Both the position numbers and the translations under genes were made by a program. 39,296 nucleotides of DNA from Neolecta irregularis DAH-3. Its lineage: Eukaryota. The notes beneath the pieces were generated by a model that did no database searches, was not told the DNA's origin, and saw nothing but the letters and a program-made list of their open reading frames with translations. Positions 1,003 to 38,508 of this stretch are shown here, piece by piece. Location of the stretch: contig LXFE01000183.1 in assembly GCA_001929475.1 (NCBI GenBank), positions 1-39,296 of the forward strand, in the 5' to 3' direction. Positions within the stretch are counted from its first letter, which is position 1. Each line of letters begins with the position of its first letter.

Positions 1003-1895
1003 CTACTGAATCAAACATTCAGTGGTCCGATGCTCTCTTTTCAGCGTCCGACTCTTGCTAGCACCAACTTTGACCTGCGACTTTTGCTTCTGCGCCCGTT
1101 TCCGATCCCTCAAAAGCTCTTCATCAGAAGCCCGTAACCATTCATTCTTGATCCGCGCAACAGGTGGTCGGCCATTGACTACCCCCAGAGCTACAAATTG
1201 CTACACCAATAAGCCTCACCATCACACATTTCCATTACCTTGGGAGTAGGAAGTAAGCTCGCGAATCCATACGTTTGTGGAAAAATAAACTTTAGTACCA
1301 AGCGAGCTACTTCAGGCGCATTCCAAATCATCTTTTCAGCTCCAATAACTCGACAAACTGCAGAAACTATCACATAAACCAAAAGAAATACAACAAGGAA
1401 CTTGCATAGAATGTAAATCCCCGTACTGTTTAACGCTGAAATACCCAATCTTTCACTATCGATAATATACCGATCCCATTCGACGTCTCCTCCAATGGTA
1501 GGCGCATACCCATACGTTGACTCATCAACAGTCGTACCAGCAGTAACCTCTAAAAAGTGGTACCGATTCAATGAATACGGATCAACACTTCTAATAGTCC
1601 ATAACCCCTCCCCCGAAGAAATCCATCCCATCCCTCCTTCTTCATTGCTTTTCCTCTTCTTATTCTTCGTAGCGGATTTACAAAGACTCATGAATTCAGG
1701 CGATAGTAATACTATATCTACCACCGTCTCGCCTAATTCATTTCGACAAGTTCCTTCATTGTTAATGTACCGTTTCAATTCTTTTTTTATCAAAAGTTCG
1801 ATTTGGAAGAAGGATGAAGGATCGATTTTGTAGTGGTTGTATAGCTCTGTTTTGGTTTTTGAAGAGAGGCGGGGTGGGGATTGGATGTGGGGCAT
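1003..1895 (-). CDS. Hypothetical protein, about 284 aa, two exons (1895-1239, 1200-1003), one hydrophobic segment and basic patches
   Basis: 234-aa ORF from ATG 1895. A 38-nt GTAATG...TGTAG intron (1238-1201) joins PTPK to QFVALGVVNGRPPVARIKNEWLRASDEELLRDRKR..., stop at 1005-1003. No family recognised. Confidence 0.6.
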
Positions 1896-1943
1896 GATGC
1901 TGTATGTTTGTATAGATGTGAATCGCGGATGACGATTTGATAA

Positions 1944-2038
1944 ATGTTGCTCGTTGAAGATGATGTCGCTCGTTCAAGATGATGTCGCTCTTTGAAGATG
2001 TCGCTCGTTCAAGATGCTTGAAAATGTCGCTCGTCAAG
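1944..2038. repeat. Five-copy 15-19 nt tandem repeat (ATG)ATGTCGCTCGTTCAAG
   Basis: Copies at 1944-1959, 1960-1978, 1979-1997, 1998-2013 and 2024-2038, just upstream of the ATG at 1895. Confidence 0.85.
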
Positions 2039-2680
2039 TCAAAGATGCTACTTTGATATCGTGCATGTGGTCGTAGGCCCACCAGACTATTTATGCCATC
2101 CCAAGTCGATTATTTGTCAATGACGTCCTTCAAGAGCGCCGCTAGCGATTTTCTCAGCGTGTGATGTGACTCAGCTAGAGGTATTTCATCTCCCCTGATA
2201 ATGAACCGTTAAGCATATACTATATCCAGAAACCTTTTTAATCCCTACCTGTATTCTTGTCCCAGTAGTTCCAAGAACCCCATTCGTCTCATTTTTATAA
2301 AAGTTCTGCTAGTTGCATGATTACGAGGATGAAACTAGTCATTGGTGGGTTTTGTGGCCCGTGTCACTGTCCATCAAAATCATTTTAGAAGCCGTTTAGA
2401 CCAGCCTTGCCACTCTGTGATATATTCAATGGTCTCTCAAATGTTAATGGAAATATTTAAAAGACGTTTATATTACTTGGCAAGTAATATTCTAAAACCT
2501 GGAAGCAGATTGAAAGGATCCGCGTTACTACACACTGCTTTATAACATAGTTTTCATTGCTAGACTATTTCTAGTGGACGGCCTCTGTCAACATTGAATC
2601 TCGCAAAGCAAAGTCAATTCGAATCAGGTTTAGCTATTTATCGTGGAGAAGCACATGACTTTACAACTCTACGACACTTC

Positions 2681-7498: not shown

Positions 7499-9127
7499 CT
7501 AAATCTGTCCTTTGATATCGATCTTGAGTTGTGACAACTTAGCCCGTTCAACTCCTTCAAGAGCGTCCTTGGTGCTGATTGCCTTGTAATCGCTATCGAG
7601 AAACGTCCCTGCTTCTCGTTCTTGGAGAAACTGTATGCATTCTGCTTCATTTTCGAAACCTAATTCGTCTGCTATAAAGCGGACTGTTAAATATGGTCTA
7701 TATCTCCAATATTAGTTCATATAAAAGATAATCATACGCTTTGCACATCGTACAAAGAGCATTGACACGCTCACGCACGATGAAACAATCCATAAGATAG
7801 CCGCCCATGTTAGGGGCATTTAAATAGAGAGAGAAAAAACGATGATAATTAGAAGTTGCTAGGGCAGACCGTACTTCGAGGGCATGTAGAATAGCTGGGT
7901 CAGATTTTTCAACAGGAGTTAGCTTTGAAAGAATATCATTGACATCTTGAAAATCAACTTTGAAGACCAAAGATATAGACCTGCATGATTTCGCGTGTGA
8001 AGTAGGTATAGTATCCGATATGCAAGAAACTCGAATTGGTTACCTTTTAGACCATGCTCATATAACGAAACAAGCTGTATGCTTCAGACTATGACTTCCG
8101 CTTCAAAAAAGAACTTACTTGTGTTTGACACTGATTATATTCGCCCAAATCACCCTGTGCCTGTCAGTCCTTCATTTGGCAACCGATTGCTAAAGATACC
8201 TTCTCCAGTGCAACGCGAGCATGGAGTTCATACACAGTGACGGTAAATTCATTCTTTATCCGCTGGACCTGGAATCTTCAGCCAATATAACAAAGTATTT
8301 GTACTGTCAAATCCTGCCGCAGACTTTTAAATTGATCGCATATATATGCATAGTTGCTTTCCTTTCTCCATTTCTTCTTAAGCAAGTCCAAAGTCTTTTT
8401 AAGAATAGGCAGAGGGCGTACAGTTTCAGGATCCGGCGCTGAAGTTAACCGTAGATACCGTTTCTCAAGCGTTTGACATCGACCAACAATGGTATCTTTA
8501 TCCCAATCGATAACATCCTGGAATATTAGCGGGCTAAATATATTTAAGGCAGGCATTATTACAGTGCATGCTACTTCATATATTGGCGGTAGGTGATCAG
8601 TAGGCTTGCGATCCTCATCGAATCTTCTCGCCCGTTTCTCTCGTCTCTGTACTTCCACTGCATTATCGACGTACAGTGGCTGAATGGAGTTGCTGCAGAA
8701 TTAAATGAGCGAACGTTGCGCCATTCTCATACCTTTTGCGTTTCTTTTCCTTCGTGTTCTTGTCCAGCTGCTGTTTCCGTTTGGTCAAAATTTCTAATTC
8801 TTTGTTATCCCAATCCTCTTCCCATACTCTGTCCTCTTCGAAAGCCTGAGTAATTAGTCTCTTTAATTCTTGCTCGATTGCGGGTTTCTCGGGGTCGCTA
8901 TCTTCTATATCTTGGAAACATCGACCAACGAACTTCTTGAGTGAATCTGGCCACTAGATAAAATGAGATGAAGGATGCGGCAATAACGCGCGCCTGTGTT
9001 TTTGGGCGCTGTTGCTGGAGTTCTCCGGGAGGCCGCAAAGTCGTCCGCGCAGTAACAGCCGTATAGGCAGGACCTATATAATCGATTAGGACAATCATGC
9101 AAGGCGCTCACACGTACGTGAGACCAT
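7499..9127 (-). CDS. THP3: SAC3/GANP/THP3-family PCI protein (Thp3/LENG8-like), about 10 exons
   Basis: [86 protein letters not shown] and C-terminal IDIKGQI*. Nine 34-45 nt introns restore the frame. Confidence 0.92.
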
Positions 9128-10064: not shown

Positions 10065-12355
10065 TTACATGCGCCATATTGAATCTGCAACATCCACTAC
10101 TTGACTCATCTCCTTGACATCGTGTACGCGGACAATATTTGCCCCCCCAGCAACACAAGCAGAAACAGCACTAGCTGTACCCCAAGTCCTCTCATGGGGG
10201 TTTGTAACACCGGTTATTTTACCAATAAATAACTTCCTGCTTGGTCCAACAAGACAAGGGAAGCCGTGTAGGGTACTTTTAAACTCAGCCATTCTTCGTA
10301 AAATTTCAATATTTTGCTCTTTCGTTTTGGCAAAACCAAGACCTGGATCGAGGATTATATTCCATCGTTTTACTCCAGCTTTTATAGCGAGTTGTATACG
10401 TTCTTTGAGTTCATTGGCGATGACTTGTATCAGGTCACCGTCATACTTGGTTAGACTGGTCATTGTTTCAGGAACTCCTCGCATATGCACCAGACAAACA
10501 GGTACATTCAGTTTGGCCATCGTGGAGAACATTTCAGGATCAAAGGCTCCAGCGCTAACATCATTAATCATTGTGGCCCCCGCCTCGATGGCTCTTCTCG
10601 CGACTTGAGCTCGGTAGGTGTCAATACTTATGGGAACATCGATGCCGGCTTCTCGGATAGATTTGATAGCGGGTATAACACGGTTCAACTCTTCGTCGGC
10701 ACCGTAGTCAAGCGCATTTGGTCTAGACGATTGACCACCTATGTCGACGATAGTAGCGCCCTCTTTTACAAACCTTTGGACAGTCATGACCACATTGTCC
10801 AGACTATGTTTTCCGCCGTCCGAAAATGAATCCGGAGTCAAGTTCAATATCGCCATAATAGCTGTAGAATTTTTGCAAGGCGAAAAAGCTACTCGTGGGG
10901 AAGTAAGAGTTTTTGTGGTTAATCTAGATAAAGCTTTGTCGATTCTCGACAATTGTGTCGGATGAATGAGATCCGGTGCAAGGCTGAAGGTAAGCAATGA
11001 TATGAGGTCAAAAGATACTCAGACAAGGGCTTTAGCACGAATTCTCTTTCCATCATCAACGGATGGGGTACAACCAATTCGTCTGTAATGATTTCTTCAG
11101 TTCCGTACAACAATATGTCGAGGTCAATTGAACGTGGTCCATTGTTGATACTAGCTATTCGTCCAATATCATTTTCGATCTTTTTCAATCGAACCAACAA
11201 CTCTTTGGGGTGGAGACATGTTTTTACCTGTAAGTTGTAAAAGATCGGCAATGAATAGAAGATATAAGCATACCTTACAAACTCCATTGATGAAATTTGG
11301 CTGATCAGTCACATACATCGGATTTGTTTCATATAACATAGAGGTATCAACAACGCTAATGCCAGTAGATTCGAGACGCTCAATGGCAGTCTGAAGATTT
11401 TGTACACGATCTCCAAGGTTGCTCCCTAATGCTATGTAAGCATCTACGAAGTCGGATTCTCCAGATGGAGGTCCTATTAGGTCTCGTGTGATCTGGACTC
11501 CAGGTGCTTTTGCAAAGCTGAGAGCACTAGGCTTCTCCGCGCTTACTGAAACTTCCTTTATACCCGGAACAGCTCGGATAAGATGAGGGATGGATGTAAC
11601 TAACGCCTCAATTGTAAGGTATTTGGAAGTCTCAATATGCTTAAGGTTAGAAATGCACTGAACTAAATAAATGGGTGTACGTCAGAGATAGTGTCTATCA
11701 TTTCGCGTAATTTGCATTCCTGTTCGTTTCCGTCACCCTTGTGGAAAACAAGGTCTATGTCAACAAATTGCTTCTCCAGTCTTTCGCAAGGATTCACTCC
11801 GATAATAGTGGCCAGTCGCAGTTGTTTAACAAAAAGCATGGCTTTTTTCTCATAAATTCCCCTGATAACTTCACAACCAGATGTTGCTGCCCTTAGAAGT
11901 GCATGTGGCTTCTCAACCCTAACTTTTGCCCATGGCACTCCTGTCGATGACTTGGTAATCATATCGCCAATTTTCTTTGCCAATTCATGCGTACTGGCAT
12001 GCTCTTCTGATTCGACCTGTTGAATCACCTGTTGTGTGAGAGTCCCATAGTGTAATGAATGTCCGATATGGTCTGTTAGTCCGGCCTTGGCAATGGAGGA
12101 TCGCAACCATAACGAGATAATAACCGGCTGATCAAGAGGACGATGCCATTGATCTAAACCGACCTTTGCTTTCAACTGAAGATCACGGACATATATGAGA
12201 TCATTTGGATCAACCGAGTAGGCCATTGGATATATCGAGACTGCTGTTGGATTATGACGTTGCTGCCGCAGACCAAGGCTGAGGGCTGGATATCGGCAGC
12301 CTTCAAAGGGTACAAAAGAGTGAAAAGACTGGTGGTTGAATAGCGAGATTCTCAT
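10065..12355 (-). CDS. FOL1: Trifunctional folate synthesis protein (DHNA-DHNA-HPPK-DHPS); second in-frame ATG at 12226
   Basis: DHNA (SLHYGTL, EKPHALL, IIGVNPCERLEKQ), HPPK (AYIALGSNLGDR, GPRSIDLDILLY, PHPLMMEREFVL) and DHPS (IMAILNLTPDSFSDGG, DPGLGFAK, GPSRKLFIG, IVRVHDV). Three introns of 41, 46 and 35 nt. Confidence 0.96.
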
Positions 12356-12606
12356 TCATCCTAGAAACAAGTGAGGTCCCTTGGAAGGAAGAGGGTTATC
12401 CCAAGGATTAGATATCGGGGCAAGAGCGAGGTCGAACAAATGTCTTAGGCTGAATTTCTGGTCTTGGACCAGAAAAACCATCAGTACAATACATATGACA
12501 TACATTACTAATTGTTTTACACTAGTTTGAAACTGCATTCAGTGCAAAGTGACATTGGGAAGGATCTGGGTACCAGTCTGTCCTTCTCTTTGACCCGAAG
12601 TACTAT

Positions 12607-15600
12607 CTAAAGAAATCTGAGCTGAATTACTAAAAGACCCCATGGAATTTGCGTGTGGCGTATCACTGATTACTGATGGTACTGGTGAACCTTTGTTAGC
12701 CACGGGATCGGCGGGTTTGGTCTAATATGAGTTAGGCAGTGATATTGAAAGTTGCAACGCTGCTACCTTTGAAGGCTTACATATTCCCATAGCTTTTGCA
12801 AGTATATCCTTTATTTTTAGAGACTTAACTGGAGTTGATACAGTAGTTGCAACATTTGCAACTTGGACCAAAGGTGGAGCGCTAATCGGATAAGCATCAT
12901 TGAGCAAATTCGCAACACTCATCGTTTTAGGTTGAGGTGATACTTGTGGTTCGAGAGAGCTGGACTGCGTTATGTAAGACTGTAGTAAGGGATAGTCAGT
13001 AAATGCACGGGGTGGAGGATTTAAAGTCCATGCGGCAGACCCTGGGATGTGCCTCTGAAAGAAAATAGAGTAAACATCGATCATTAATTCGTCGATATCT
13101 GCTGGAGGAATCAGTCCCGCGTTGAGCTTTCTGAATTCAAAAATCTCTCGTAGTAAACCCACTTCTGAAGATACAGTATCAGTTTCTGCATAGAAGCGTT
13201 CAAGAATGGGGGCGGTCTGACTAAACTTCTCCTGGTTGATCTTTCCAAGAAGGTCCTCAGTGTGAGATATCCTATATTTATCTCGGATTATCTGGCATAG
13301 TCAAATGACTTTGCTAAAATGACCCACACCTTGATATAGACTTTGCATAAATACTCCCATAAACCAGAGACGTCCCAAATTTGATTTGTACTACGCCTGA
13401 TCTTCTTCGCTAACGCAAGTAGAGTTTCCAGATCGTGATCAGATTCGATCATTTGTAACGAGAAATAGGCATATTTGTTTGTGTGAATGAAGAAACGACC
13501 AGGCCTAGATGATTAGTAGCAATCACATATCTTCTTTTTTGCCTTTCGAATTCCGACCGCCAGAAAGGAAAGAGCTTAGTTCCTGTTGAGGCTAACAGTC
13601 CCATTTCTTTGCGGGCTTCAATGATGTTTCCAAACACTTCCAGTTGAATCTTTGCATGCTACCTTTCAGCATTTCCTTTAGCAATTAGAATTTATACCAT
13701 GTATGTTGAACGATGGTGTCGCACGCTGGTATTCATAGTGACCAGCTTTTGTAGGCAATTTTGTATTAAACAGAAGAATGACGTCCGATAATCTAGTTCA
13801 ACACACTCAATTGCGGGGCAGTATCGTGTATCTTTTATCAAGTCTGTTGCGGAAACCGGCTAAAAATTAGACTTTTTTCAAAGAGTTGCATACATCAATT
13901 TTATTAGAAAGCACAAGTTTGGCGGACGAAGTAAAGAGTTTGTAATGAGGCTCAAGCAACCGTTGTTCTTCATTATTACTGTCGCTTGAGAACACTGGGG
14001 CTCGTTCAGTGGACATTCGTAGAAACCGAATTGCTTTTACTGGATCTTTGTTAAGTTTCAACAAACATTTCCCAATGTTGTAATCAAATCTTCAATTAGT
14101 GTCGCTGGAAGTGGAAAATACCTCCAATCATTCGGAAACTGCTTAGCAGCCATGAAATAGCACTGCATTGCACAACTTACCGCCTGTTTGTAGCCAATTC
14201 CATGATAAGCAGGATTATGTTCAAGTTGAGTTCCGTCTCCTCGGCTATATAACCGGATAAGATTGCATTTGAACGCTTCAAGAGCCAAGGGTTCGTGTGC
14301 TATGCCATATATATGGTTCCCCATCTCGAAGAAAAGACCCGAAAGAGTCATTTGGGACGGAAGTTCTTTAGAGGTGGAAGTATTGAGCACGAGCGTAACA
14401 GCCGCCATAAAAGATAAAGTTGCTTTCTGAGTTCATCAAGAAACTGTAGAGAAAGATTTGTCAAACCTTTTGCAACGCTACTATCTCGCTCTGTTCTTTC
14501 CTAATTGCATCGGCACTCCAGGACATATAATCTTCGACCAGAAGCACATATGTATGTGCCAAAGCATACCAAACTTCCGGTTTCAGATGATCCACCGCGA
14601 GCGCCCACTTATGGTAAGCCCAAAACAAACACTGGTGTTTGCTTACCCGAAGATTATCCTGGGCATATTCGAGTTCAGATGTTTCCCGATTCTGTGTAGT
14701 ACTTTTACGATTCTTATACTGCGTGATGCCTGTCTTACCCATAATGAAGTAGGTTATGAAGAGAGCTAATGTTTGAGCAAAAGAATGCTGATTCGACACC
14801 CTCACTTTGATCTACTTTGGATTCAAACCCTCCGGGAAGTTGTAAAACAGTGCCTCTACCCTTCAAAGATTCGAACAAAGCGTCGGTTCGAATGTGGCCC
14901 TCTATGTAGGTATCAATAACCGTAAGGTCCGTCTTCAATGCTATAAGGTCAGTGACAACTTGAACAGGGCGAATACGGCTTGATGCTATCGGGGGCGGAC
15001 CAATTGCTAAACCCACCTCCCCAAGTGCAGACCAGATAGGATTTTGAGGAAGTATCAATTGCCAAGGTTCGACAGTCGGGATAAGCGGGAGTAACAAAGC
15101 TGCAATAACAATTGCAGATGATCCCTCAAGGGGCTGTTGAGGTGACCCGTGGTCCGTCAGTAGCCATGACTTTTCGAACTGAAAAGTCAAGATTAGACAA
15201 AAGGGAAGAGTTACCGTCAAATCATATCGACATTGCAAACATTGTAGAAGATCGGCGATTACCATAGTGTCTCGCTCAGAACTTACAAGCTCGACTTGTA
15301 AAAGATCGAGGAAGGCTCCTGTTAATCAGTAATTAGCCACTCGGTATATGATACCCCCTAAGAGAAAGCAATAACTTCGTGACCCGAGTTCTTGATGAAC
15401 CAATGCGAGAAAAGTAAGAGGATAAGCTCGATATTTCACCATTTCCTGATAGCTTACATCTTCGAGTTCAGATATTTTTTCGCTTAATGCCGGTTTATAG
15501 AGCATGTAAAAAGCGATCCACAAGCCGACAAACATATCTCTCATAGCATGCAAAAATTCTTTTCCAGGTTTTCGAGCCTCTGGCAAGTCTTCGTTTTCTG

Positions 15601-18431
15601 CAACTGTATCTTCGTAATAAGCAAAGACCAAGAGGAATCGAATAAGCCAAAGTATGCTTGACATGGCATCCTTCCTTTCTGTGGCATCCAGATCTCCAAC
15701 AATATCCGGGTGGCTTTCAAGGATTTGAAGCAACAATCGTGTATTCTCGGTAGTCTTACATCAGTCATCGGATATTCGATCATTATTACCATCCGAAGGC
15801 TTGTAAGTATTTCAGTCCTAGGATCGCGATGTAAATCAGATGTATTAAAGGTCAAACTTTGTGCAACCAGCTCGAAAATTCCAAAAAGACACTTCAGAGC
15901 GTCTGTGTACCGCTCTTTTTTTATGTATGCCTGTATTGATTACTAAAACAGATGTCTAGAAGGCATACATCTTCAAGTAATCGCCATAGATGAAGACGAA
16001 ATTCCAGACTCGAATCAGCTATAAACCGGCGTATTGTTATCATGGCTTCCCTTTCAGACCCATTGACCTGCATCTCGCCTTCGTATAGTAAGATGGGCTC
16101 AATTTCGCGAATAACATCTTCAGAACTATCTGGACCTGTACCTTCGAACACGCGGGTAAAATGATGAATTGTGCGAAGTTTGGATATTTCTTCACTTGTC
16201 CTCTTAAGTGAAATCGAACAAATCGCACGGCTGCAAAGTAAGCAGAATTTGCGAAGCAATTTGAACCTATTGGGAGCTTGAAGCTCATAGTTTGCTGGGT
16301 CGTCAACTCCAAGAAGAAGCTCATAGATGCCGCTGTATATTTCCAATATTAGACCCGGACATTCACCAGTACACTGTAAAAGGACAGCACTACACCACTC
16401 GAACCTTATGTCAGAAGAATAATTATATATATCAAACCTCAGTAGTGTCATATGAGCATCAGACTCATTTTTTCGATCAGTATTGAGACTACAAAAGAGT
16501 TCTCCAACTAGAGTTCTCCATTTGGTTGAACGTAGATTTTTATCTTGCATAAGTGCTTCCCAAACAAGATCGTTTTCATCGTTTTGCTTAACCAAGATCG
16601 CATCCATAAGATCGTCCAGATAAATTTCGAACAGAGCTTGGGCCCATTTGATTTTTGCTAAAATCTGCATTTCGCCGGGATAACATGACTGGAGTTCTCG
16701 AAGACAATGATCTTCAATGATGAGTGCAACTTCGGTAACTAACGTTTTCATATTTTGTGTCCAGGGACAGGACATATAATCCGATTGGGAATCGGTCAGC
16801 ATTTTGAACCACGCTATCATTGTCTCCCACAAATGCATAGATGCACCATTTACAAGGGACATAAATCCCTCTGCATCAGTCTTCGTAGAGCAGCCAGAAG
16901 GACTCTGAGCCCGAGCAGATTTCTTGGCTAAATCGAGAAGCATCATTTCCGAACTGCTGATTTGCGGTCTCGCTGGCTCATGAGTGACATTAAAAACCTC
17001 AAGGTAAGAATCGTTCCAATCGCGTAATAAAGATTTGAAGTCATCCAGGATTCGATGGTCTGGATCTATTATTGAAGCTTGTGTATTGAAGGCCAGCGCA
17101 TCTGGAGCAGAAACACTTAACCCAACAAACCCTACAATCTCGTTCAAATTGGCGAGGAAATTTCGATCCGCACAGTCTAAGCCAGAGATACTTTCTCTTC
17201 CACGAGCTCGTTTGGCAGATCTTCCCCAAGCATCTTCATCACCTCTACGTTTTGAACCAATTTCTGGGGAGTGCGGAGGAATTTGTCGATCAGTGGACGG
17301 ACTGACAGGCGCAAGAATGCCTTTCGGTTCTGAAACATCCTCATTGTCTAGTGGAAGAACTATTGTGACAGGGAAGTATTCCTCTGAATCTGGAAATCTG
17401 AAATCTGTCATTCATTGAAACCGGTGAGTGTACGTTGTGCATAGAGCCCGCCTTACGCTCAGGCCGATTGAGTATAATGTTCGCTTCTTCGGCTTCAGCT
17501 GGAGAATGTGAGACCTGCAATCAAATCTTTGGCTCGAAAATCAGCTCGGAAGATCTACAACATTGATACCATTGAATCGATAATCTCGGTCGCAAATTCC
17601 CTGGAATTCCTGTCGCAGAAAAAATGGTTTGTAGTGTCTCAAATGAAGAACAAGCTCTATCTCTCAGTGTCTCGTAAACCTGAAGTAAGAAATTTATAAG
17701 TAAAAAAGTAATACAGCAAAAAGATCAACCAATGCTTGTGATTGACGCGGAGAACATTGAACAAGGTCTCCAGAAGCAGACGGCGAATTCTTCATACCAC
17801 ACACAATACATTCCAGAGCAAACCGAGTTAGTCGAGGAAGCTCCAGGATTGATGTGACCTCCGCCGTCTTGTACCATAAAGATTCGTCATCAGGATCGTG
17901 TAGCAGAGCCTAATTGCGGTCAACTAGCCGAAGACAAAGCGAAGGTAAACTTACCGTAGAAAATTTGTCCACAGCCAGAACAAGGACATTTTCATTAATC
18001 CTCTCTGATGGAGTCTCGCTCTCAGCTCTATCGATCATAAATAAACCATGGTTCTTGTATGCTAAATAGAGCAAAAGTTGAGCTGCGGAACTTTTAGCAG
18101 ACTTAATGCTCTACTATTATAAGTGAAGCAGCTTTGGGGTATTCAGCACGCACATCTGATTCAATTCTTTTTAAAACTTCAAGTTGAAACAATTCATCGT
18201 ATAAAGAGGCTGCCCGATCCCAGTGTCTCTGATGGTGTGCATCTAATGCTTTCTGGTAAAGTTTCAACGCTTCCTCAACCTATCTTGGTCGGCCTTTTTA
18301 TATTATGATAACAGACTTGCACTTCCTGAGTTTTAAGCTCTGCTTCGGTCTCAGATATGGGGACCGCATTGATTGCAGTGAATGTTGACTGGACTCATGA
18401 GCCCAACATGTATAAAGAGCAATTTTACCAT
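12607..18431 (-). CDS. HIR3: HIR complex subunit Hir3/CABIN1-like, about 22 exons (3' end approximate)
   Basis: N-terminus M|STFTAINAV..EVQVEEALKLYQKAL, YLAYKNHG, LEPHYKL, HRSTY and WRSEFERPGRFF match the Hir3 family. About 21 introns of 32-45 nt. Confidence 0.85.
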
Positions 18432-23854: not shown

Positions 23855-24469
23855 ATGATTTCAAGCTTACCCGAAGACGATCCGCCGTCTTATATTGAAG
23901 TCTTCAAAAGTACAAGAAAATGGAGCCTCGACATTGTCCTCTATGATTCGCAATTTCATAGGATTGAAGATCCCGATGATCTCGAGCAGGATGGGGAAGA
24001 ATCTCAACAACTCGAAGAGTTCGATCGAGATCGTCTTGAAATCGAGCTAAAGGATTTACAACCGGATATTATCGAGACGTTCTGCCAACTTACAGGTCGT
24101 AAAGGGGAGGCGGTTAGAAATATGGTATTTTTCTTGGCAGTGACTGGTGACGTGATATCGAAAGAAGAGAAAATTAGATCTGTAATTATCTGGCATAATG
24201 AATTCCAGCGGCCTGCGGGTGTTGTGAGCAAGCTTGATAACACTACAATCAGGGTGGTTATAAATCCAGGTAAAACCTTGTATGCAAGTCCTGACGAACT
24301 AGATTGGAACATATTCGGTGGGGTTCTTTCTCATTGGCCGACAAAAATTCCGAGACGTCGAAGTAAAAAGTTATGTCGCAGTATATTACTCGTCATGATA
24401 TTTATAAGTTTGGTCATAATATTTTTCGCAATTCGGAGCTTTGAAGATGAGAACAGTATGGTGGACTAA
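23855..24469 (+). CDS. Intronless hypothetical protein (about 204 aa) with N-terminal PPSY motif and C-terminal transmembrane helix; upstream in-frame ATG at 23651 possible
   Basis: Part of a 272-aa ORF. MISSLPEDDPPSYIEVF start, acidic patch, then RRRSKK followed by ILLVMIFISLVIIFFAI near the C-terminus. Confidence 0.65.
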   Translation: MISSLPEDDPPSYIEVFKSTRKWSLDIVLYDSQFHRIEDPDDLEQDGEESQQLEEFDRDRLEIELKDLQPDIIETFCQLTGRKGEAVRNMVFFLAVTGDVISKEEKIRSVIIWHNEFQRPAGVVSKLDNTTIRVVINPGKTLYASPDELDWNIFGGVLSHWPTKIPRRRSKKLCRSILLVMIFISLVIIFFAIRSFEDENSMVD

Positions 24470-24804
24470 AGTGGCTCATCGTCTCAGATTATTTATACAA
24501 TTCAGGAGATTATCAGGAGAAAGAAATAACGACAACGATAATTGTTAAAATTCCTTAATGCACCACATTACATGGTTCGTTGCAGGACACGATGACCATC
24601 TCATCAGCTCGGGAAAGGCTTGAAGAATACCTTGAACTGTAAGAACTGGTTGGGTCCAAGGAGCGATTGAATGAAAGCAGATATTTGCAAGCAGACCGTT
24701 GCTTGCCTTGGCTAATTATCTATAACTGAGTAAATTCATGGTTGTGTTTGATAGGTTGAAGGAAACCAGCACAGTGTGATAGGATCTCAATTGTACTATT
24801 CCCT

Positions 24805-25636
24805 CTATGGCACGAGTTTCTTCGACCACACTAGCTGCTTTTCAATATATTTACCCATGATGTCGACTTCTATATTCACTCTATCATCCCGTTTTTTGAT
24901 AGGAAGTGCGATCTTTGCCTGTGTATATGCTATAATCATTATACTGAACTCTGAATCAGTAACAGAAGTAACGGTAAGGGATGTTCCATCGACACAGACG
25001 TAACCTTGAACTGTCAGTTCCTGTTGGATGATCCAAAATAACCTTTCTCAACGATGTACTTCATCACTGACCGGTCATCTGGACATAGAGTAATAACCAA
25101 CGAGTTATCATCTGGTTCCATTGAGACTATTTTTGCAGTTGTATCAACATGACCCTAGATTTAATCAACATAGGTCCTCATGCAGAATGTTTCACTTGAA
25201 CGAAATGACCACCAAACCTTCCTTGACTTGCCATAGCCCTCTCTAAGTTCACTAGAGATCCTAGAGTCAAGTCCCCCAGATTCGTCCTGCGCAAAGTTTC
25301 GGGGCTAAGACCTAGCTTAAACGTAGATTGATCAAATTCGGTAATCGTCAAGCAGGTTCCTATATAGAAATCAATAAAAAGTTGCTCCAGAATCATACCA
25401 TTGATAGATATGCTATCCAGTCAAACAACATCAATTATAGCTTAGAGAGGTACCTATCTCCCAAATGCGCATCTCCAAGAATGGGTGCGGAGTCAACGAT
25501 AGTCAACGAACATCCATTGCCACCACTTTCAGAGATGTCATCAAATTTTAATTCTCCAACTCCTTTTCAAGTCAGTTCTCTTATCCGTGATAGAAATAAT
25601 TATACGGCCCATGTGTTCAATGATTCCTGTGAACAT
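24805..25636 (-). CDS. RIB5: Riboflavin synthase (alpha-chain type), 6 exons including a 14-nt microexon
   Basis: MFTGIIE N-terminal signature, GDSISINGTCLT, VNLERAM..RFGGHFVQGHVD, KGYVCVDGTSLTV and VNIEVDIMGKY. Confidence 0.95.
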
Positions 25637-25772: not shown

Positions 25773-26703
25773 ATGTTTCTTTCAAGATCAGGTCATTATC
25801 GCTCATTATGGCTCTCAACTAATCTGGTCTTAGAATATGACCGTGGAGTGAACACATTTTCTCCAGAAGGCCGATTATTTCAAGTCGAGTATGCAATAGA
25901 AGCTATCAAAGTATTCATCACGGCCATCAACATCTAAAACCTTAGCTCGGTTCAACGGCGATTGGCGTGTGTACTGCAGACGGTGTTATTCTTGGTGTTG
26001 AAAAAAGAGTTCATTCGACCTTATTAGAAAGTTCAAGTATCGAGAAAATCGTCGAGATTGATAGGCATGTGGGATGTGCTATCAGCGGACTAGTTGCTGA
26101 TGGACGTTCGATGCTGGATCATGCGAGAGTTCAATGTCAGGTATGTGTCGCTTGAACATAGAGGGAGTAACGAGCTAGTATCATGCTTTCACATATGATG
26201 AACCGATTAAAGTTGAGAGTGTTACACAGGCGGTTTGTGATTTGGCGCTACGGTTTGGTGAAGGTGAGGATGGAGAGGAGAAGGTCATGAGTAGGCCTTT
26301 TGGGGTCGCATTGCTGATCGCGGGTGTTGATGAGAATGGTCCTCAGTTGTACGGGATCTCTTGTCTGGCTTTTGGGATTGAGAAGCATAGGTACCACGCT
26401 GATCCTTCTGGGACATTCTATCGGTTCGATGCCAAAGCAATAGGGTCTGGGAGTGAAGGCGCACAAACAGAACTGCAAAATGAATACCACAAAGTATGTT
26501 CCTCAGGGTGCAATTGCTTACTGATATAGTCAATGACACTTTCAGAAGCTGAGGTATTAGTTCTGAAGACACTAAAACAGGTTATGGAAGAGAAGCTTGA
26601 CTCAAAGAATGTTCAGTTAGCCAGCATGACATCGACAAATAACGGAACATTCCACATCTACACGGACGAACAAACCGCAGAAGTGGTTGCCAGATTAGCG
26701 TGA
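25773..26703 (+). CDS. PUP2: 20S proteasome alpha-5 subunit, 6 exons
   Basis: [77 protein letters not shown] and [10 protein letters not shown]. Confidence 0.97.
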
Positions 26704-26784: not shown

Positions 26785-27992
26785 CTATTGACGAATTTCT
26801 TCATCTCCTTCGTCTGCGATTTCTCCTTCTTGAGGCTTTTCCTTATCTAGTTCTTTCTCTTGCATTACAGTGTCAACATAATTCACCGGATCACTAATGG
26901 AATCAGGTACATCTCCCTCCTGATACCCTTCAACCCAATGATCATCAGTAAGCACTTGAATATTTTCCTGCTTGACTTTCTCGGTTGATGTTTCCAGTGC
27001 ATCAGAAGGAAGCGTAACAAGGTCTGAGGGAATCAAGTCATCTGGAGATAAGCAAAATATATTATGAATGGAAGACAAACACATTTCCGATATAGCCATA
27101 AATCGTTTATACAATGCAGATTCGTGCTTCCCATTAATCCTTTCTAATAAAAACCAAAGTACCTCAACACTCCAGAAGGAGTCCTGATGCTCAAAATATG
27201 CATGGGCAAAGATTCTATAAAGTCTTCTCATGATGGAACCAAAATGTCGAACTGAACCAGCTGGAACAGACAGTCTGCAACCATGAAATCAACATTTCCT
27301 GGAGTGACATACCTTGAAGGAAACTGCCTTGAACAAAGCACAGAAGTCGCATTTTCAAGCGTATGAAGCATATAATCAATGGCACAGCATTCTTTTGGCT
27401 GTTCATGAACAGCGCAAAGGTACTGCCATTCTGAAGCCCGCATTTCAGGACAGCGTTGAGAGGTACACGGGTTGATCGGATCTGTGAGTAATGCGACTAT
27501 CAATGCATTTAAATCTAAAGAGAGTCGACTATCTCATTTAGAATTCGACCAAAACTACAATTGATACCGTATCCATTCATATATCCAGATATTCTGCTCG
27601 ACGCCTTCAGGTGTTCTGGCGAGTTCATTTGCTTGTGCACGAGTGAGGTTGTGCAAATCTGTAGCTTCAAGCTTTGAAGCCAGATATTCTTCCAACTGAT
27701 AAGCCGATTCAATTTCAGACAGAGGTACTGGTTTAGGTGGATGCATATCCTATATGGAAATCGGATTTTGTCGAAAGCAAATATATTATACCTCAGCCTT
27801 GGCACCTATCCTTATCCTTCTGACTGATTTTTTCGATGGATCAGGCGCGGCAGAAAATGAAGGAATTGGTTCTGTAGCATCGCTTATTGATTGAAGATCT
27901 GCTGGAGCCGAGTCACTGCCATAATCTTCAGACGAAGGAGGTGGAGACTGCTTAAGTTCGAAGGAGGGGACTGAACGCTCCATTGCCGTCAT
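26785..27992 (-). CDS. MOB4: Phocein / MOB4 (fungal Mob3), STRIPAK subunit, 6 exons
   Basis: PEGVEQNIWIYEWIRR, CPEMRASEWQYLCAVHEQPKECCAIDY, FPSR and RRLYRIFAHAYF are phocein-class motifs rather than Mob1/Mob2. Confidence 0.9.
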
Positions 27993-28099
27993 TTATGCTG
28001 GTTTCTAATTTATTGATGCTCTGTAGGTATTTCGGAAATTTTGGAGGTGTGGTACGGCGGTTCTCTACACGTTTCCTTCCTTAAGATCACGCAGCTACT
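27993..28099. promoter_or_regulatory. 107-bp divergent promoter region MOB4 / HIU hydrolase
   Basis: Opposing ATGs at 27992 and 28100. Confidence 0.5.
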
Positions 28100-28468
28100 A
28101 TGGCTGGTTCAGAAGGAGATCATATCACTTGTCATATTCTGGATACTGCCCATGGACGGCCGGCCTCGGATGTCAGGACAACACTGTATCGGTTCGTGGC
28201 CGAAGTTCCTTTAGAGATCGGGACAGCCTGTACGAATAAAGACGGGAGAATAGGAAAATGGCATCGCTCAAACGAACAGATGTTTCAGTTGGATATAGAT
28301 GGGCTATTCAAGATCAGGTTTGAAAGTGGTGAGTACTTTGAAGCACTGGGGGAGGAAACGTTCTTTCCTTTTGCCGAGATTGTTTTCCGGGTGTACAAGG
28401 GAGAAAGACATTACCATGTCCCGCTGCTGCTATCCAATCACTCATATACAACCTATCGGGGCTCGTAG
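28100..28468 (+). CDS. 5-hydroxyisourate hydrolase (transthyretin-like), intronless
   Basis: ITCHILDTAHGRPA, TNKDGR, FFPF and HYHVPLLLSNHSYTTYRGS with the diagnostic C-terminal YRGS. Confidence 0.96.
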   Translation: MAGSEGDHITCHILDTAHGRPASDVRTTLYRFVAEVPLEIGTACTNKDGRIGKWHRSNEQMFQLDIDGLFKIRFESGEYFEALGEETFFPFAEIVFRVYKGERHYHVPLLLSNHSYTTYRGS

Positions 28469-28672: not shown

Positions 28673-30198
28673 ATGACCACTGATCCACCCAAACAGGACT
28701 TCTCGTCTTCGGCAATCATCGATGATGACGAGGAACCCATGAAAGACGTCGATCCAGATGCAGAAATCATGAATGAACTCTCCCACTCGTCCGTACAGGA
28801 TATCAACAACAGAGCACGTCTCATAGACAACGACATAAAAGTACACAAACTGCCCAATGCCTGTACTAACAGCCGTTTCAGGTCATGCGCTCAGAATATC
28901 AACGTTTAACCCATGAAGTTTCGACCATGAAAGAGAGAATCAAGGAAAATACAGATAAAATTGAACAAAATAGGACTCTTCCATATCTCGTAGGAAACGT
29001 CGTCGAGCTCTTGGACCTAGACCCTGCCGACCTGGAAGAAGAGGAAGACGGTGCAAATGTTGATTTGGATGCTGCGAGAAAAGGAAAGTCAGCAGTCATC
29101 AAGACTTCAACTCGACAGACGATATTTCTTCCTCTCATCGGTCTCGTTGATCCATTCAAGCTAAAGCCGGGCGATTTGATTGGCGTAAACAAAGATTCTT
29201 ATTTGATTCTCGACACATTGCCTGCGGAATATGATTCAAGAGTCAAAGCTATGGAAGTCGACGAGAAGCCTACAGAAGCTTACACGGATATCGGGGGACT
29301 TGATAAACAAATCGAGGAACTGGTTGAAGCTATCGTGCTGCCAATGAAAGAAGCCGACAAGTTTATAAAATTGGGGATTAAACCGCCTAAAGGTTAGGTT
29401 CTTCCAAATTGTGAATTAATGTTAGGTGCACTGATGTATGGACCTCCAGGAACAGGCAAAACACTGCTAGCAAGAGCCTGTGCCGCTCAATCAAACGCAA
29501 CATTTTTAAAATTGGCTGGTCCACAACTTGTTCAAGTAATTTCTCATCCAATATCTCTATTCATATCATAAGATGTTTATTGGCGATGGGGCAAAATTAG
29601 TTCGCGATGCTTTTGCTCTCGCAAAAGAAAAGGCACCGGCGATCATCTTCATCGACGAACTTGATGCCATAGGCACTAAACGGTTTGATTCCGAGAAATC
29701 TGGAGACCGAGAAGTACAAAGAACCATGCTGGAACTCTTGTCTCAGTTGGATGGATTTGACTCTGATGATCGGGTAAAGGTTCTCGCTGCCACAAACCGA
29801 GTTGATACGTTGGACCCTGCACTTTTGAGAAGCGGCCGGTTGGATAGAAAGATTGAATTTCCGTTACCTAAGGAAGATGCCAGGTTCGATGGCTTTCGAC
29901 CAATAATGCTAATTCTTCTCAGAGCACGAATTCTGCAAATTCATTCGAGAAAGATGACTGTGGATGAAGATGTCAATTGGGATGAGCTGGCCAGAAGTAC
30001 AGATGAGTACAACGGCGCCATGTTAAAACAGGTCTGCGTGGAAGCTGGTATAGAGTTCTTTACTATTTATTTGGTTGACTTTCTCTAGGTATGATTGCTC
30101 TCCGAAGCGGCGAAACACGGATCAGTCACGAACATTTCATGGACGGAATTCAAGAAGTCTTGATGAAGAAGAAGTCATCTGGGTCCTTCTATGCATAG
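28673..30198 (+). CDS. RPT5: 26S proteasome AAA ATPase Rpt5 (subunit 6A), 6 exons
   Basis: [33 protein letters not shown], Walker A GPPGTGKT, Walker B IIFIDE and C-terminal HbYX (FYA). Introns at 28841-28881, 29393-29425, 29536-29572, 29884-29922 and 30048-30088. Confidence 0.97.
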
Positions 30199-31896: not shown

Positions 31897-32099
31897 GAGG
31901 TCTAAAAGTGGATCGCAAGTATATATATCGGCTCGCAATGTGACTAATATCGAAGTCAGCCTGGGGTACTGACACCAGCGGGTCTAAGATGGTGTGGTAC
32001 CTTCCTGGCGCTCTACCTGGCACCGCAACGAGGCTTCTGGAAGCAAAAATAGAGTGGAAAAAGCAAGAACAAAGACAAAGAAGACTTGTTCTGGTCTTC

Positions 32100-32123
32100 T
32101 TAAGTTGTGATTCGTCTGAACAT
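32100..32123 (-). promoter_or_regulatory. Candidate uORF (MFRRITT*) in the cyclin 5' leader
   Basis: ATG TTC AGA CGA ATC ACA ACT TAA; the only minus-strand ATG I found between about 32280 and the cyclin start. Confidence 0.45.
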
Positions 32124-34952: not shown

Positions 34953-35346
34953 ATAGCCAATTGTCTGATAGTATTAATATTCGTTTAATTCCGTAACAAA
35001 TCTATCAATAATGTTGCTCGTTCCTCGGGCATAAGAGTCTATTGCTTTGATACGGTGTATAGCAGCTGAGAAACGGTTATTCAAAAATTACTCAACTATG
35101 TGAAGAGAATTACGTTCTCGATTGAAGGAACGAAAGACTTAACATGTCTTCCTCAATTTAACGTGTCAAATACGCATAGTATGCTTTGCCTGAAATCAAG
35201 TCGTCGAGTCGAAAATGAGACAAGAAAAGAACCGGACTAACGAGGAACCTAGGAGGTCCTGTCATGGGATAACAAGTATTTAATTGATCTCTAGACATAA
35301 CTCCTCCCATAACTCATCCAGTAAATCCTCCATAAAATTCCCATTT

Positions 35347-38300
35347 CTATACACCAGTGTCAGGATCATTCTCTCGCATATTTCCGTCTTGACCATCGGT
35401 GGGTGACAAATAATTTTGTTCCACCGGACTTTCAATTTTGTCAGAACCTTTATTGCTTCTTCGAGTAAACGTTCTCTTAAACTTATTGAGAACTGGTACG
35501 CTAGAAGACGCCGTATTTTGGCTTTGTCGAGGTTGCGATTCTTGAGCGGTTTTTTCGAGATCTGAATATGAAAGTGTCCGAGACATTCGCCGGAATACAC
35601 CAACTCTAGAAGATCGTTGTTTAGAGTTACGAGGTTGGGGTGCAGCAGGCGCTGATTGCTTGTCGGGTTCTTCCTCTAGCATAGACGTAGTATTTGTAGC
35701 TTTCGTAGCTTGACTTGGAACAGTGCCAGCTTGTTTTTTCCACATGCTTGCATAAATACCGTCTTGTTCCACCAAAGAACGATGGTCTCCGCTCTCAATG
35801 ATTTCGCCGTCTCGGAGATATAATATCAAATTCGCGTTGACGATACTACGATATTTAGTGACTGCAATTGGCAGGTATATACGTTGATAGACGATGAGCA
35901 ATTACCAAAGTGGTTCGACCAGCACAGAGTCGCTTGAGAGCCGATTGAACTTCAAGTTCAGTGTTTGAATCAATAGCGCTTGTAGCCTCGTCAAGCAAGA
36001 TGATATAGGGATCTTTAATAATGGCCCGAGCAATTGCAATGCGTTGTAGTTCCCCACCGGATAGTTTTTGACCCCGTTCTCCAACGCTTGTTTCATAACC
36101 TTCAGGGAAACTCAAAATGCGCTGGTGAATTTGTGCTGCTTGACAAGCTGCATAAATTTCAGAATCTGTTGCCCCGCGATTGGCATATTTCAAGTTGAAC
36201 ATGATGCTATCGTTGAACAAAATGGTGTCCTGGGGTACGATGCCTATATGTGAACGAAGACTGTGAAGTGAAACACCTCTAATATCTTGTCCATCGATTT
36301 TTATTTTTCCTGATGTAGGGTCGTAGAATCTGAACAATAGTCGAAAAATACTACTCTTTCCAGCACCGGATTCACCTAGTGATATTAGAAATAGAATTTA
36401 AGGAAGACCTGCCAACAAGTGCAATGGTACTGCCAGCAGGAACCCTAAATGACAAATTCTTCAGTACTGATTTCAATGAAGTGTAACCGAACGATACATT
36501 CTCTGTCCGGTCAGTTACCTATCACAACGTCCATATTACCGAAGGCAACTTCCCCATTAGGAACCCGAAGAGTTTCCGCGTTGGGATCGTCGGCGATTGT
36601 AGGAATCTCGTTGAGCTTCTTGTTGGAAAAAATGGCAAGGTGGAGGTACCAGTTCCAATAGCCTCTCAGCGTCAATAAACTGATTTTGGAGGCTTTTGTA
36701 ATAACTAAAAGTAAGTACACGTTTGTCTCTATGAGACTATACTTAGCAAAGAACTTCATAGGCCTTTCAAGTTGCTGGAGATAAGTTAAGAGAGTGACAA
36801 AATCTCCCACAGTAGCTTGGCCTTGGGCAATTCGGTATACAAAGATAGCACAACAAATGAGTCGGCCAGATGAGAAAATGCCTTCCTCAAAGATCCAAAT
36901 GAAATACATCATAATGTAGTAAATCTTTTCGCTCTTGAGAGTACTGCTAACAGCTTCATTGAACCGCCCATTCTCATACTGATCGCCATTGAATGCCTGG
37001 CTACTGTTAGCCAGCGAAATTAAAACAATTATTACTTTAATTGTTTCGTAATTGACCACGGAATCGTTGCGGATGGCTGCTTCGTTTCTTCTCAGACAAA
37101 CCAGGCGTCTCCTTTCTTTTTTTCGCTTTCTGACCATTCCTACAAAAATGTAGGTCCACGAAACCATTACGATAATCACAACTAAGGCATAGTATGGATC
37201 ATAAAAAATGATAAAGTACGCTATAGCCTAGCATATCAGTTAAAAGAATATCACAGGAAAATAAATACCACTACCAAATCGATTAGATTGGGGACCATGT
37301 GGAAGGAAAGATCCGATATGAAAGATGAAATACTCTCGCCGTGATCGAGACTTCGAAGAACATCGCCAGTCTTCTTACTTAAATGGAAGTCCAACCCGAG
37401 ACTCTGAACATGTTCAAAAGATTTTGTAGCAAGCATCTGAGTTGAATATTGTTCGATACTGAGCCAAAGCGTTTGGCGAATAGTGAACAAAAAACCAGAC
37501 TGAAAGAAACGAACGGAAAGGTAGAGGAATAAAGCTCCCCAAGGAATAACTTTGATTGGTGAAACGGCCAACATCATCAATTTATCGGTCAGATTACCGA
37601 GTGTATAGGGCCCGAGAACATTCATGCCTCGTTCAATCATCATAATCGCAATGCATATAACAAAGTGAATTTGGAGTCTTCGATCGTATTGTGGCCAAAG
37701 ATAAGGAAAGAGTTTCTAAATAAGTCAACTTTTTGAACGCGAAACCAGAAGGTGCCTTGAATCCTTTCACGTAGTCCCAAAAAGGCTTTTCAGATACGTT
37801 TTTAGCGTCGCTATCCCCTGCCCCGGAGGCATCACAAGAACCTTGTGAAGTTTCAATTGCACCATACCCCGCTTCATTCGCGAGGAGAGGTGTGTCTTTA
37901 AGTTTAAAATAGCGAAAAACTCTTTGAAGAGAACGCCGTCTAATGAGGAGATAAAGCAAATTTAAAGTGGCCAGGGTCGAGAGACGAACCAGCGTCGAAG
38001 AAAGGTGCAAGATACTCCAGACATTCATAGTCTGCTGATAAACTCCGAACTCAAGAATCAAGATCAAGGATTCACCGAGTAAAGCAACAATCCAACTACC
38101 AAGTAAATCCCAGTCGATATGGGAATTAAATTTTCGATCGCGCATATTGAGGAGAACCATTCCCCAGACGAAAATGCTAGCGATAAGGTAGATCTTGAAA
38201 GTTTAGTGAAAGAATAGATTGACGATTAAACGACATACAACAAAGTCTTCTTCGGGCTGCCAGGCCAGATGTAAAGTTTGTTGAACAACCAAAAAGACTC

Positions 38301-38508
38301 CATCACTAATCTATATCTTTAGGGAAGAAAATTCCTGATCATTGATACGTACATATGTGCATAGCAAGATGACAGTCAAGACGGTCAGGGGCCATATGCT
38401 AGGGGCGGCTGGAATATGCAGTTTCTCTTTACTTGGAGGCGGGATAATCGAAGTGATGATGTGCGTCAAGAAGACAAGCAGTGGGGTTATATAATGGACC
38501 GTCGCCAT
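35347..38508 (-). CDS. HMT1: HMT1/ABCB6-like ABC half-transporter (N-terminal TMD0 + TMD + NBD), about 11 exons; upstream in-frame ATG at 38622 possible
   Basis: [39 protein letters not shown], Walker [43 protein letters not shown] and IAHRLST. Confidence 0.88.

Follow-up and report, generated by a model that had tools for sequence, protein, structure and literature searches.

Introns that are shortened and carry reduced splice-site motifs have evolved repeatedly, in lineages that include ciliates, microsporidia, dicyemids and myxozoans (Hadjez et al. 2026, PMC13644364). Introns of this ultra-short class measure 15–30 nucleotides (nt) and are found mostly in parasites or ciliates. In fungi such as Schizosaccharomyces, Pneumocystis and Cryptococcus, introns have GT–AG ends, are recognized by intron definition, and carry a CTRAY-like branch site near the 3' end with little or no polypyrimidine tract. 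The shortest mean intron among the 61 species of Iwata and Gotoh (2011, PMC3033335) was 56 bp, and the main text of Lim et al. (2021, PMC8476143) singles out the 63 bp of Cryptococcus as "relatively short". Here we describe the introns in a 39,296-nt stretch of DNA (the window), which is a public scaffold of Neolecta irregularis DAH-3; an ARP6 exon in it is 100% identical to the deposited "Actin-like protein arp6". Neolecta is an early-branching, fruiting-body-forming and free-living ascomycete. Its introns in this window are real but tiny and uniform in length, with donor sites that are unusually weak for a fungus. Judging from the sequence and its alignment to homologs, we think it probable that they are genuine U2-type introns (GT–AG, with one likely GC–AG) handled by a conventional spliceosome at its lower size limit and marked by weak signals at a fixed spacing.

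The Neolecta introns share with those of Schizosaccharomyces, Pneumocystis and Cryptococcus the ends, branch site and scant tract named above and probably intron definition, and with Pneumocystis a high intron density. However, they are shorter and far more uniform, and the G at the fifth intron position (+5G) is not conserved. The likeness to the ultra-short class lies in a narrow length distribution at a lower limit and in reduced splice-site motifs. At 33–42 nt, though, the Neolecta introns exceed the length of 30 nt or less that is typical of that class (minimum 33 nt among 29 firmly placed introns), and they keep a recognizable branch motif. Tiny introns with reduced signals are already known in other lineages, and Neolecta adds one more case.

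The supplement of Lim et al. (2021, PMC8476143) gives 19,467 Neolecta introns with a total of 806,929 nt, from which we computed a genome-wide mean of 41.5 nt. Cisse et al. (2021, PMC7940399) report 4202 Neolecta introns in 1211 orthologs, and the passages concerned do not describe splice signals. Neolecta cannot be cultured, and a 2026 paper (PMC13263728) includes 75-bp paired-end RNA-seq data for it. The genome paper (PMC5309816) reports 5,546 genes and sequencing of fruiting-body RNA, with 99.4% of genes supported by the latter; its main text contains neither "intron" nor "splic" and its text supplement no intron data, while its PDF supplement may hold statistics. In the titles, abstracts and passages of the literature on Neolecta introns and splicing, we found no treatment of Neolecta splice signals.

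Intron boundaries and lengths

We placed introns with a spliced protein-to-DNA aligner that accepts any GT..AG pair of 20–400 nt at a flat penalty and has no splice-site model. Twenty-nine introns in four genes (RPT5, ARP6, a ChAPs gene and an ABC transporter gene) were backed by proteins of other species and form our firm set. Despite the wide range allowed, their lengths were 33–42 nt (mean 37.9, SD 2.2), a narrow and unimodal distribution at the lower limit. All 29 had GT..AG ends, and one GC–AG intron appeared when GC donors were allowed. Removal of the firm introns left an open frame and collinear homology with orthologs.

Support differed among the four genes. The five RPT5 introns (41, 33, 37, 39 and 41 nt) were identical in all three homologs tried, of 120 fetched. 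For ARP6, all eight introns (40, 38, 35, 38, 38, 37, 38 and 35 nt) were recovered with two of the five proteins tried; the deposited model lacked only the first two, and two distant homologs each recovered seven. The deposited ChAPs model yielded 11 introns of 34–42 nt, ten of which were confirmed by Lipomycetaceae homologs. The deposited ABC transporter model has ten introns, of which six were confirmed in four to five of five alignments (five homologs of the 150 listed); the homologs were divided on three N-terminal introns and spoke against one deposited intron. Five introns thus came from deposited models alone (41, 42, 45, 55 and 55 nt), one of the 55-nt introns being contradicted by homology. 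When the exact intron was forbidden, the alignment score fell by 4–92 units with both homologs for 28 of the 29 firm introns, the last one lying outside the short segment covered by this test; the margin was 11 units or less in four.

Single distant homologs also produced "introns" that substituted for alignment gaps, which we dropped. These measured 24, 26 and 82 nt in ARP6, 60 and 117 nt in ChAPs, and 25, 25, 30, 38, 41, 42, 45, 48, 82, 88, 90, 124 and 127 nt in the ABC transporter gene.

For the rest of the window we used a donor-blind model trained on the 29 firm introns, which in cross-validation gave about 26 right and 3 wrong frame-restoring introns. Run on 22 other regions, it yielded 65 predictions. 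Of these, 58 restored the frame, with +5G in 20 and GTAAGT in 2. The predicted lengths are constrained by the model and so hold no new evidence on length, and the predictions include one implausible 265-nt intron and some introns in weak gene candidates. A Pfam search of 86 short reading-frame pieces gave usable coordinates for only a few exons, which agree with several of the predicted introns. Two other sources were rejected: a whole-strand run of the trained model chained across the entire window, with 170 and 155 "introns", and was replaced by the region-by-region runs, and a signal-free gene finder (codon usage and GT..AG only) recovered 5–15 of 34 introns exactly, depending on settings.

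The original prediction, made by splicing conserved genes by hand, had given the same RPT5 and ARP6 lengths, which the signal-blind aligner reproduced exactly. It had also placed about 90 introns of 32–49 nt between positions 1201 and 38352. These two coordinates are ends of introns in the window, and the firm and predicted sets together amount to about 92–99 introns, in line with that count. The tiny size was borne out as well, although the range was slightly too wide for the firm set.

As a control for the method, we applied the same aligner to 17 of 80 environmental RPT5 loci, picked because the span of their matches implied introns. This gave 30 introns of 36–81 nt. The Neolecta introns differed from them both in +5G (10/29 versus 24/30; Fisher p = 0.0006) and in length (37.9 ± 2.2 versus 55.6 ± 9.0 nt). 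Since the same aligner yields +5G in 24/30 introns elsewhere, the weak Neolecta donor is not an artefact of the method. The best identity among the 80 metagenome loci listed was 84%. Separately, an environmental protein (P0009), whose contig is not among the 80 loci listed, was 91% identical to the queried RPT5 exon (88% aligned), closer than any named species, which suggests that environmental data contain a near relative of Neolecta.

These results bear on the explanation that the weak donors merely reflect misplaced boundaries, whether through hand-splicing, the aligner or the annotation, and that the true junctions have ordinary donors. Homology shows one deposited intron to be wrong and gives poor support to three others, four firm introns have the small margins noted above, and the poor exact recovery by the signal-free gene finder, 13–15 of 34 introns in this comparison, indicates that alternative GT..AG pairs abound. 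However, independent homologs agree on the boundaries, alternatives cost score in 28 of 29 cases, the same method finds canonical donors elsewhere, and +5G comes out at 34–38% whether counted by hand, in the firm set or in the donor-blind predictions. We consider an artefact of this kind highly improbable.

Donor, branch and acceptor signals

Donor sites in the firm set showed a preference mainly at +3, where A occurred in 23 introns, G in 3, T in 3 and C in none. The purine at +3 of the typical fungal donor consensus was therefore present, whereas the strongly conserved +5G of that consensus (GTRNGT/GTAAGT type) was found in only 10/29. On the exon side, −1G was seen in 16/29 and −2A in 18/29, and there was no preference at +4 or +6. 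The 29 donors comprise 21 different hexamers, none of them GTAAGT. Beyond GT, the donor held 1.9 bits relative to base composition and 2.1 bits relative to 322 exonic GT sites, 1.4 of these at +3. A slight preference for +5G remained (30/86 versus 20% in decoys, p = 0.001). We saw no compensation between −1G or an exon-final AG and +5G (p = 0.43–1.0), and compensation between +3 and +5 was not significant (p = 0.14). Plant introns are longer and U-rich. Plant 5' splice sites resemble the Neolecta donors in holding little information at +5 and +6 (0.27 and 0.21 bits; PMC10599564), but they show a negative coupling of −1G and +5G that was not seen in Neolecta.

A branch-like yTnAy motif was loose but real. 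The pattern YTRAN, with its A 5–16 nt from the 3' end, occurred in 21/29 introns compared with 8.3 ± 2.5 in shuffled introns, and none of 500 shuffles reached 21. An unconstrained motif search found a yTrAy-like motif at only 3.2–3.5 SD over shuffles; the position-restricted test was clearer. With the learnt motif, the putative branch A lay 29.3 ± 2.0 nt from the 5' end and 8.5 ± 1.5 nt from the 3' end, so that about five bases lie between and there is no room for a polypyrimidine tract. The acceptor signal consisted only of "not G" at −3 and a G at +1 in 14/29. Relative to the putative branch A, the acceptor was the first AG at least 5 nt downstream in 28/29, and the donor was the nearest GT at least 22 nt upstream in 22/29. 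Introns were slightly richer in A+T than exons (64% versus 57%). The introns did not match the U12 type, whose consensus is a donor [AG]TATCCTT and a branch TCCTTAAC (PMC3033335): none of the 34 listed donors started GTATCC.

Donors of this kind could also arise from a changed early spliceosome (the U1 5' end, the U6 ACAGAGA box, or U1C, Luc7, SNRNP27K or the U6 methyltransferase), in which case the weak donor would reflect different reading machinery and not relaxed selection. A +5G frequency far below that of the control loci would fit, as would the contrast with the G described as "very strong" in fungi at "+4" by Iwata and Gotoh (2011, PMC3033335), a position that we take as +5, and the lack of compensation between −1G and +5G. 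Nevertheless, the residual +3A, −2A and −1G and the slight +5G preference still point to the canonical consensus. In a preprint survey of U1 and U6 in 230 Saccharomycotina and 10 outgroups, which do not include Neolecta, U1 ACUUACC and U6 ACAGA were invariant wherever identified, despite shifts in donor preference (10.1101/2023.05.04.539401). The invariance of these pairing sequences across 240 species makes a change in the small nuclear RNAs (snRNAs) unlikely a priori. The Neolecta snRNAs are most probably ordinary, and a changed spliceosome seems to us improbable.

Information carried by intron length

We next compared intron length with the sequence signals as a guide to the true introns. 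The four pre-mRNAs contain 6266 GT..AG pairs of 20–300 nt, 29 of them true, so that 7.8 bits are needed to single these out; all 29 were among the 252 pairs of 33–42 nt. Candidate pairs were ranked by leave-one-gene-out analysis, with three genes used for training and the fourth for testing, in turn. As a single feature, length had the highest average precision (0.15), followed by branch (0.04), donor (0.03) and acceptor (0.02). Donor, acceptor and branch combined without length reached 0.14. With length added to one signal, average precision rose to 0.53 (branch) or 0.50 (donor), and donor, length and branch together reached 0.80. Length accounted for about 4.8 of the approximately 7.8 bits in true introns, the largest single contribution. 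Much of the information marking Neolecta introns therefore appears to lie in their spacing. Short-intron recognition was reportedly treated in information-theoretic terms by Lim and Burge in 2001, and length is a quantitative feature in that view too; what sets Neolecta apart is that length is the largest single contributor. Iwata and Gotoh (2011) and Gotoh (2018) belong to the same line of work, in which length is credited with over 30% of the information in certain species and with more weight in fungi and plants (PMC6157073, PMC3033335).

The original prediction had held that introns here may be defined mainly by distance, possibly with altered U1/U6 snRNA or associated factors, and had described almost no donor consensus (+5G in 33 of 88), loose branch sites and polypyrimidine tracts that are often missing. 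Its +5G count agrees with the firm and predicted sets (near 34–35%), and its description of branch sites and tracts holds. The donor is indeed weak, but "almost no consensus" is a little overstated, given that 27/29 firm donors have +3A or +5G compared with 33% of the 322 exonic GT sites. Similarly, a ruler is right in the informational sense, length being the best single feature. As worded, however, the distance claim goes too far, because the signals are weak and not missing: GTA begins 23/29 donors versus 17% of exonic GT sites, and the yTnAy motif exceeds its shuffled expectation.

Coding sequence contained few sites that imitate introns. In 13.4 kb of coding sequence, three pseudo-introns scored above the tenth percentile of real introns, compared with 8.1 ± 2.8 in synonymous-codon shuffles, and a count this low was seen in 1 of 100 shuffles. 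This depletion hints at selection against cryptic introns. Across nine gene segments, GTA occurred 99 times in coding sequence compared with 117 ± 7.5 in synonymous-codon shuffles, a rarity compatible with avoidance of cryptic donors or with simple avoidance of TA.

Alternatively, deletion bias and genome compaction could have pushed introns passively against a size floor. The spliceosome would then not use distance as a cue, and recognition would depend on elements in the exons, on RNA structure or on a link to transcription. Average precision stops at 0.80 even with donor, length and branch combined, leaving some information unaccounted for, and the A+T content of introns is only slightly raised over that of exons. 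Convergent shrinkage with reduced motifs is also described for compact parasite genomes (Hadjez et al. 2026, PMC13644364). On the other hand, the three sequence signals nearly fail without length, exons are somewhat depleted in pseudo-introns defined with a length term, and the choice of the first usable AG past the branch in 28/29 is a distance-type rule. We regard a purely passive origin as rather unlikely.

A model for intron recognition in Neolecta

In the reading that we favour, of genuine U2-type introns at the lower size limit, three weak signals mark each intron: a minimal donor of GT followed mostly by A, preceded in the exon by a slight bias towards A and then G; a loose yTnAy motif for the branch, placed about 29 nt after the donor; and the first AG 6–12 nt past the branch A. 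With spacing nearly invariant (37.9 ± 2.2 nt in total), geometry is more informative than any single sequence signal, and the introns cannot be picked out from the sequence signals alone. Recognition would occur by intron definition, with the 5'-site and branch complexes bridging a distance near the steric minimum. Because few competing GT or AG would fall within the permitted span, selection on donor positions +4 to +6 may have been relaxed.

A stronger version, which we put forward only as a speculation and think unlikely to be correct, is a steric ruler operating from the branch site. The branch complex would form first, and the nearest GT(A) about 26–32 nt upstream would then be used nearly regardless of U1/U6 pairing at +4 to +6, through a lineage-specific change in an early-spliceosome protein or in snRNA handling. 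If this were true, Neolecta would be the fungus with the least sequence-dependent donor recognition.

Several points weigh against the model of weak signals at fixed spacing. The firm set comprises 29 introns in four genes on one 39-kb scaffold, with boundaries taken from protein alignment, and the aligner initially allowed GT–AG only, so the terminal dinucleotides are partly built in. The branch sites are predicted and were picked with a distance prior, which makes their tight spacing partly circular, and the 22-nt and 5-nt thresholds for the nearest GT and first AG were set after seeing the data. The control introns come from related organisms, occupy a few orthologous positions and are non-independent. 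The depletion of pseudo-introns is modest and could reflect dinucleotide bias, and the narrow length could be a pure product of deletion bias that the spliceosome does not read. In Paramecium there is a deficit of in-frame, stop-free introns. In our small sample 8/29 introns were multiples of three and 4/29 were also stop-free, and no such depletion was seen.

Gene content and deposited gene models

Fungal housekeeping domains detected by Pfam in reading-frame pieces of the window were Brix, PRCC, an SH3-SH3-PX-PB1 scaffold, SAC3, a fused FolB-HPPK-DHPS enzyme, ChAPs, actin-related protein, riboflavin synthase, proteasome alpha, Mob1/phocein, HIUase, AAA ATPase, cyclin and ABC transporter. The deposited locus tag NEOLI_001270 corresponds to one window gene. 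Scans of the window found no Rfam families and no tRNAs. Intron coordinates are given in Table 1.

Two deposited models disagreed with homology. The ARP6 model (343 residues) begins at an internal methionine and lacks the first exons and two introns (window 21947–22195, +), which four cross-species homologs aligned. In the ABC transporter model (P0195), a 55-nt GT–AG intron (36376–36430, −) takes out six conserved residues immediately ahead of the Walker A loop. A 37-nt GC–AG intron ending at the same acceptor restores these residues, was favoured by four of five homologs once GC donors were permitted, and likely replaces the deposited one. The second deposited 55-nt intron of this gene (37716–37770, −) is doubtful, with homologs suggesting 30, 42 or 82 nt instead. 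By eye, a GC lies 40 nt upstream of the same acceptor and would give an in-frame 40-nt GC–AG intron.

Table 1. Introns of the Neolecta irregularis DAH-3 window. Positions are those of the window; costs are the fall in alignment score, in units, when the intron is forbidden; predicted introns are from the donor-blind model.
Feature	Position	Strand	Length (nt)	Donor	Support and remarks
RPT5 intron 1	28841..28881	+	41	GTACAC	3/3 homologs; branch-like CTAAC; cost 21
RPT5 intron 2	29393..29425	+	33	GTTAGG	3/3 homologs; cost 83–92
RPT5 intron 3	29536..29572	+	37	GTAATT	3/3 homologs; cost 23
RPT5 intron 4	29884..29922	+	39	GTTCGA	3/3 homologs; cost 65–66
RPT5 intron 5	30048..30088	+	41	GTATAG	3/3 homologs; cost 46–50
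ARP6 intron 1	22003..22042	+	40	GTGAGT	Not in deposited model; 4/4 cross-species homologs; cost 16–28
ARP6 intron 2	22158..22195	+	38	GTATAG	Not in deposited model; homologs; cost 62–81
ARP6 intron 3	22259..22293	+	35	GTAGGG	5/5 proteins
ARP6 intron 4	22418..22455	+	38	GTATCA	4/5 proteins including deposited model; lowest margin, cost 4–11; alternative shifted 7 nt
ARP6 intron 5	22610..22647	+	38	GTATGG	5/5 proteins
ARP6 intron 6	22977..23013	+	37	GTAGGA	4/5 proteins; cost 41–42
ARP6 intron 7	23150..23187	+	38	GTAGAT	5/5 proteins
ARP6 intron 8	23251..23285	+	35	GTATGG	5/5 proteins; cost 7
ChAPs intron 1	18706..18746	+	41	GTAATG	Deposited model (P0345) only
ChAPs intron 2	18874..18915	+	42	GTTCGG	P0345 and Lipomycetaceae homologs
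ChAPs intron 3	19158..19197	+	40	GTAATA	P0345 and homologs
ChAPs intron 4	19371..19409	+	39	GTGTAA	P0345 and homologs
ChAPs intron 5	19596..19632	+	37	GTATGG	P0345 and homologs
ChAPs intron 6	19851..19889	+	39	GTAGCT	P0345 and homologs; in frame, stop-free
ChAPs intron 7	20043..20076	+	34	GTGAAT	P0345 and homologs
ChAPs intron 8	20560..20598	+	39	GTAATC	P0345 and homologs; outside segment of forbidding test
ChAPs intron 9	20680..20717	+	38	GTAGGA	P0345 and homologs
ChAPs intron 10	20844..20878	+	35	GTACCT	P0345 and homologs
ChAPs intron 11	21038..21076	+	39	GTAAAT	Alignment and forbidding test
ABC intron	37228..37268	-	41	GTATTT	Deposited model and 4/5 homologs; cost 6–8
ABC intron	36997..37035	-	39	GTAATA	Deposited model and 5/5 homologs; in frame, stop-free
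ABC intron	36705..36742	-	38	GTATAG	Deposited model and 5/5 homologs
ABC intron	36616..36649	-	34	GTACCT	Deposited model and 5/5 homologs
ABC intron	36503..36539	-	37	GTAATA	Deposited model and 5/5 homologs
ABC intron	35846..35882	-	37	GTATAT	Deposited model and 4/5 homologs
ABC likely GC–AG intron	36376..36412	-	37	GCAGGT	4/5 homologs with GC donors allowed
ABC intron	38311..38352	-	42	GTACGT	Deposited model; weak homolog support, 2/5
ABC intron	38194..38238	-	45	GTATGT	Deposited model, boundary uncertain; 1/5 homologs, alternatives 41, 48 nt
ABC intron	37716..37770	-	55	GTGAAA	Deposited model, boundary uncertain; 1/5 homologs, alternatives 30, 42, 82 nt
SAC3-family gene, 8 predicted introns	7499..8987: 8954-8987, 8693-8732, 8269-8304, 8161-8199, 8075-8118, 7946-7980, 7698-7737, 7499-7538	-			Lower confidence
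FOL1-like gene, 3 predicted introns	10984..11680: 11640-11680, 11274-11316, 10984-11018	-			Pfam pieces
Unnamed gene, 7 predicted introns	12533..13893: 13860-13893, 13659-13697, 13505-13557, 13292-13329, 12722-12758, 12666-12703, 12533-12573	-			Lower confidence
Large unnamed gene, 10 predicted introns	14427..17558: 17515-17558, 17398-17433, 16231-16266, 15931-15968, 15755-15789, 15319-15354, 15179-15214, 14812-14848, 14608-14646, 14427-14466	-			3 not needed for frame
Unnamed gene, 5 predicted introns	17680..18428: 18389-18428, 18280-18316, 18111-18153, 17910-17954, 17680-17714	-			Lower confidence
Weak gene candidate, 5 predicted introns	21475..21931: 21893-21931, 21813-21847, 21718-21752, 21546-21585, 21475-21511	-			Model score 12; doubtful
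Unnamed gene, 3 predicted introns	24456..24680: 24456-24487, 24544-24585, 24639-24680	+			
Riboflavin synthase, 4 predicted introns	25005..25453: 25413-25453, 25360-25398, 25155-25195, 25005-25042	-			Exon ends agree with Lum_binding profile coordinates
Proteasome alpha-subunit, 3 predicted introns	25911..26529: 25911-25945, 26141-26178, 26494-26529	+			Profile 4–69 then 71–127 across 26141-26178
Mob1/phocein, 4 predicted introns	27042..27791: 27750-27791, 27529-27567, 27275-27312, 27042-27080	-			
HIUase/transthyretin, 3 predicted introns	27988..28317: 27988-28026, 28047-28085, 28282-28317	+			2 not needed for frame; low confidence
Unnamed gene, predicted introns	1201-1238, 1900-1933	-			
PRCC gene, predicted introns	2524-2563, 3087-3124	+			
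Cyclin gene, predicted introns	32085-32121, 31961-32000	-			
Unnamed gene, predicted introns	34491-34530, 34647-34684	+			

Three further features of the window are of note. A riboflavin synthase gene with two lumazine-binding domains occupies about 24840–25570 (−); the 2026 paper (PMC13263728) attributes the colour of N. irregularis fruiting bodies to riboflavin. The short spacer between two divergently oriented genes holds, at 1944–2016, about 4 copies of a 19-nt unit in tandem (78% match), which may act as a promoter element. Upstream of the Brix domain, at the 5' end where the window is cut (1–184, +), a coding repeat with a 42-nt period (2.7 copies, 98% match) encodes a Thr/Pro-rich stretch.

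Implications for Neolecta

Gene finders tuned to ordinary fungal signals misplace introns here, as seen in the deposited window models with one wrong intron and one truncated gene. Such annotation errors affect studies of orthologs and of intron evolution that reuse the deposited models, and Neolecta is used to study the origin of complex multicellularity. If the pattern in this window is genome-wide, Neolecta would probably have shorter and more uniform introns than any other fungus outside the microsporidia, and its donor consensus would probably be among the weakest in fungi. It would offer, in a lineage close to fission yeast, a natural system for testing to what extent splice-site choice can rely on spacing in place of sequence.

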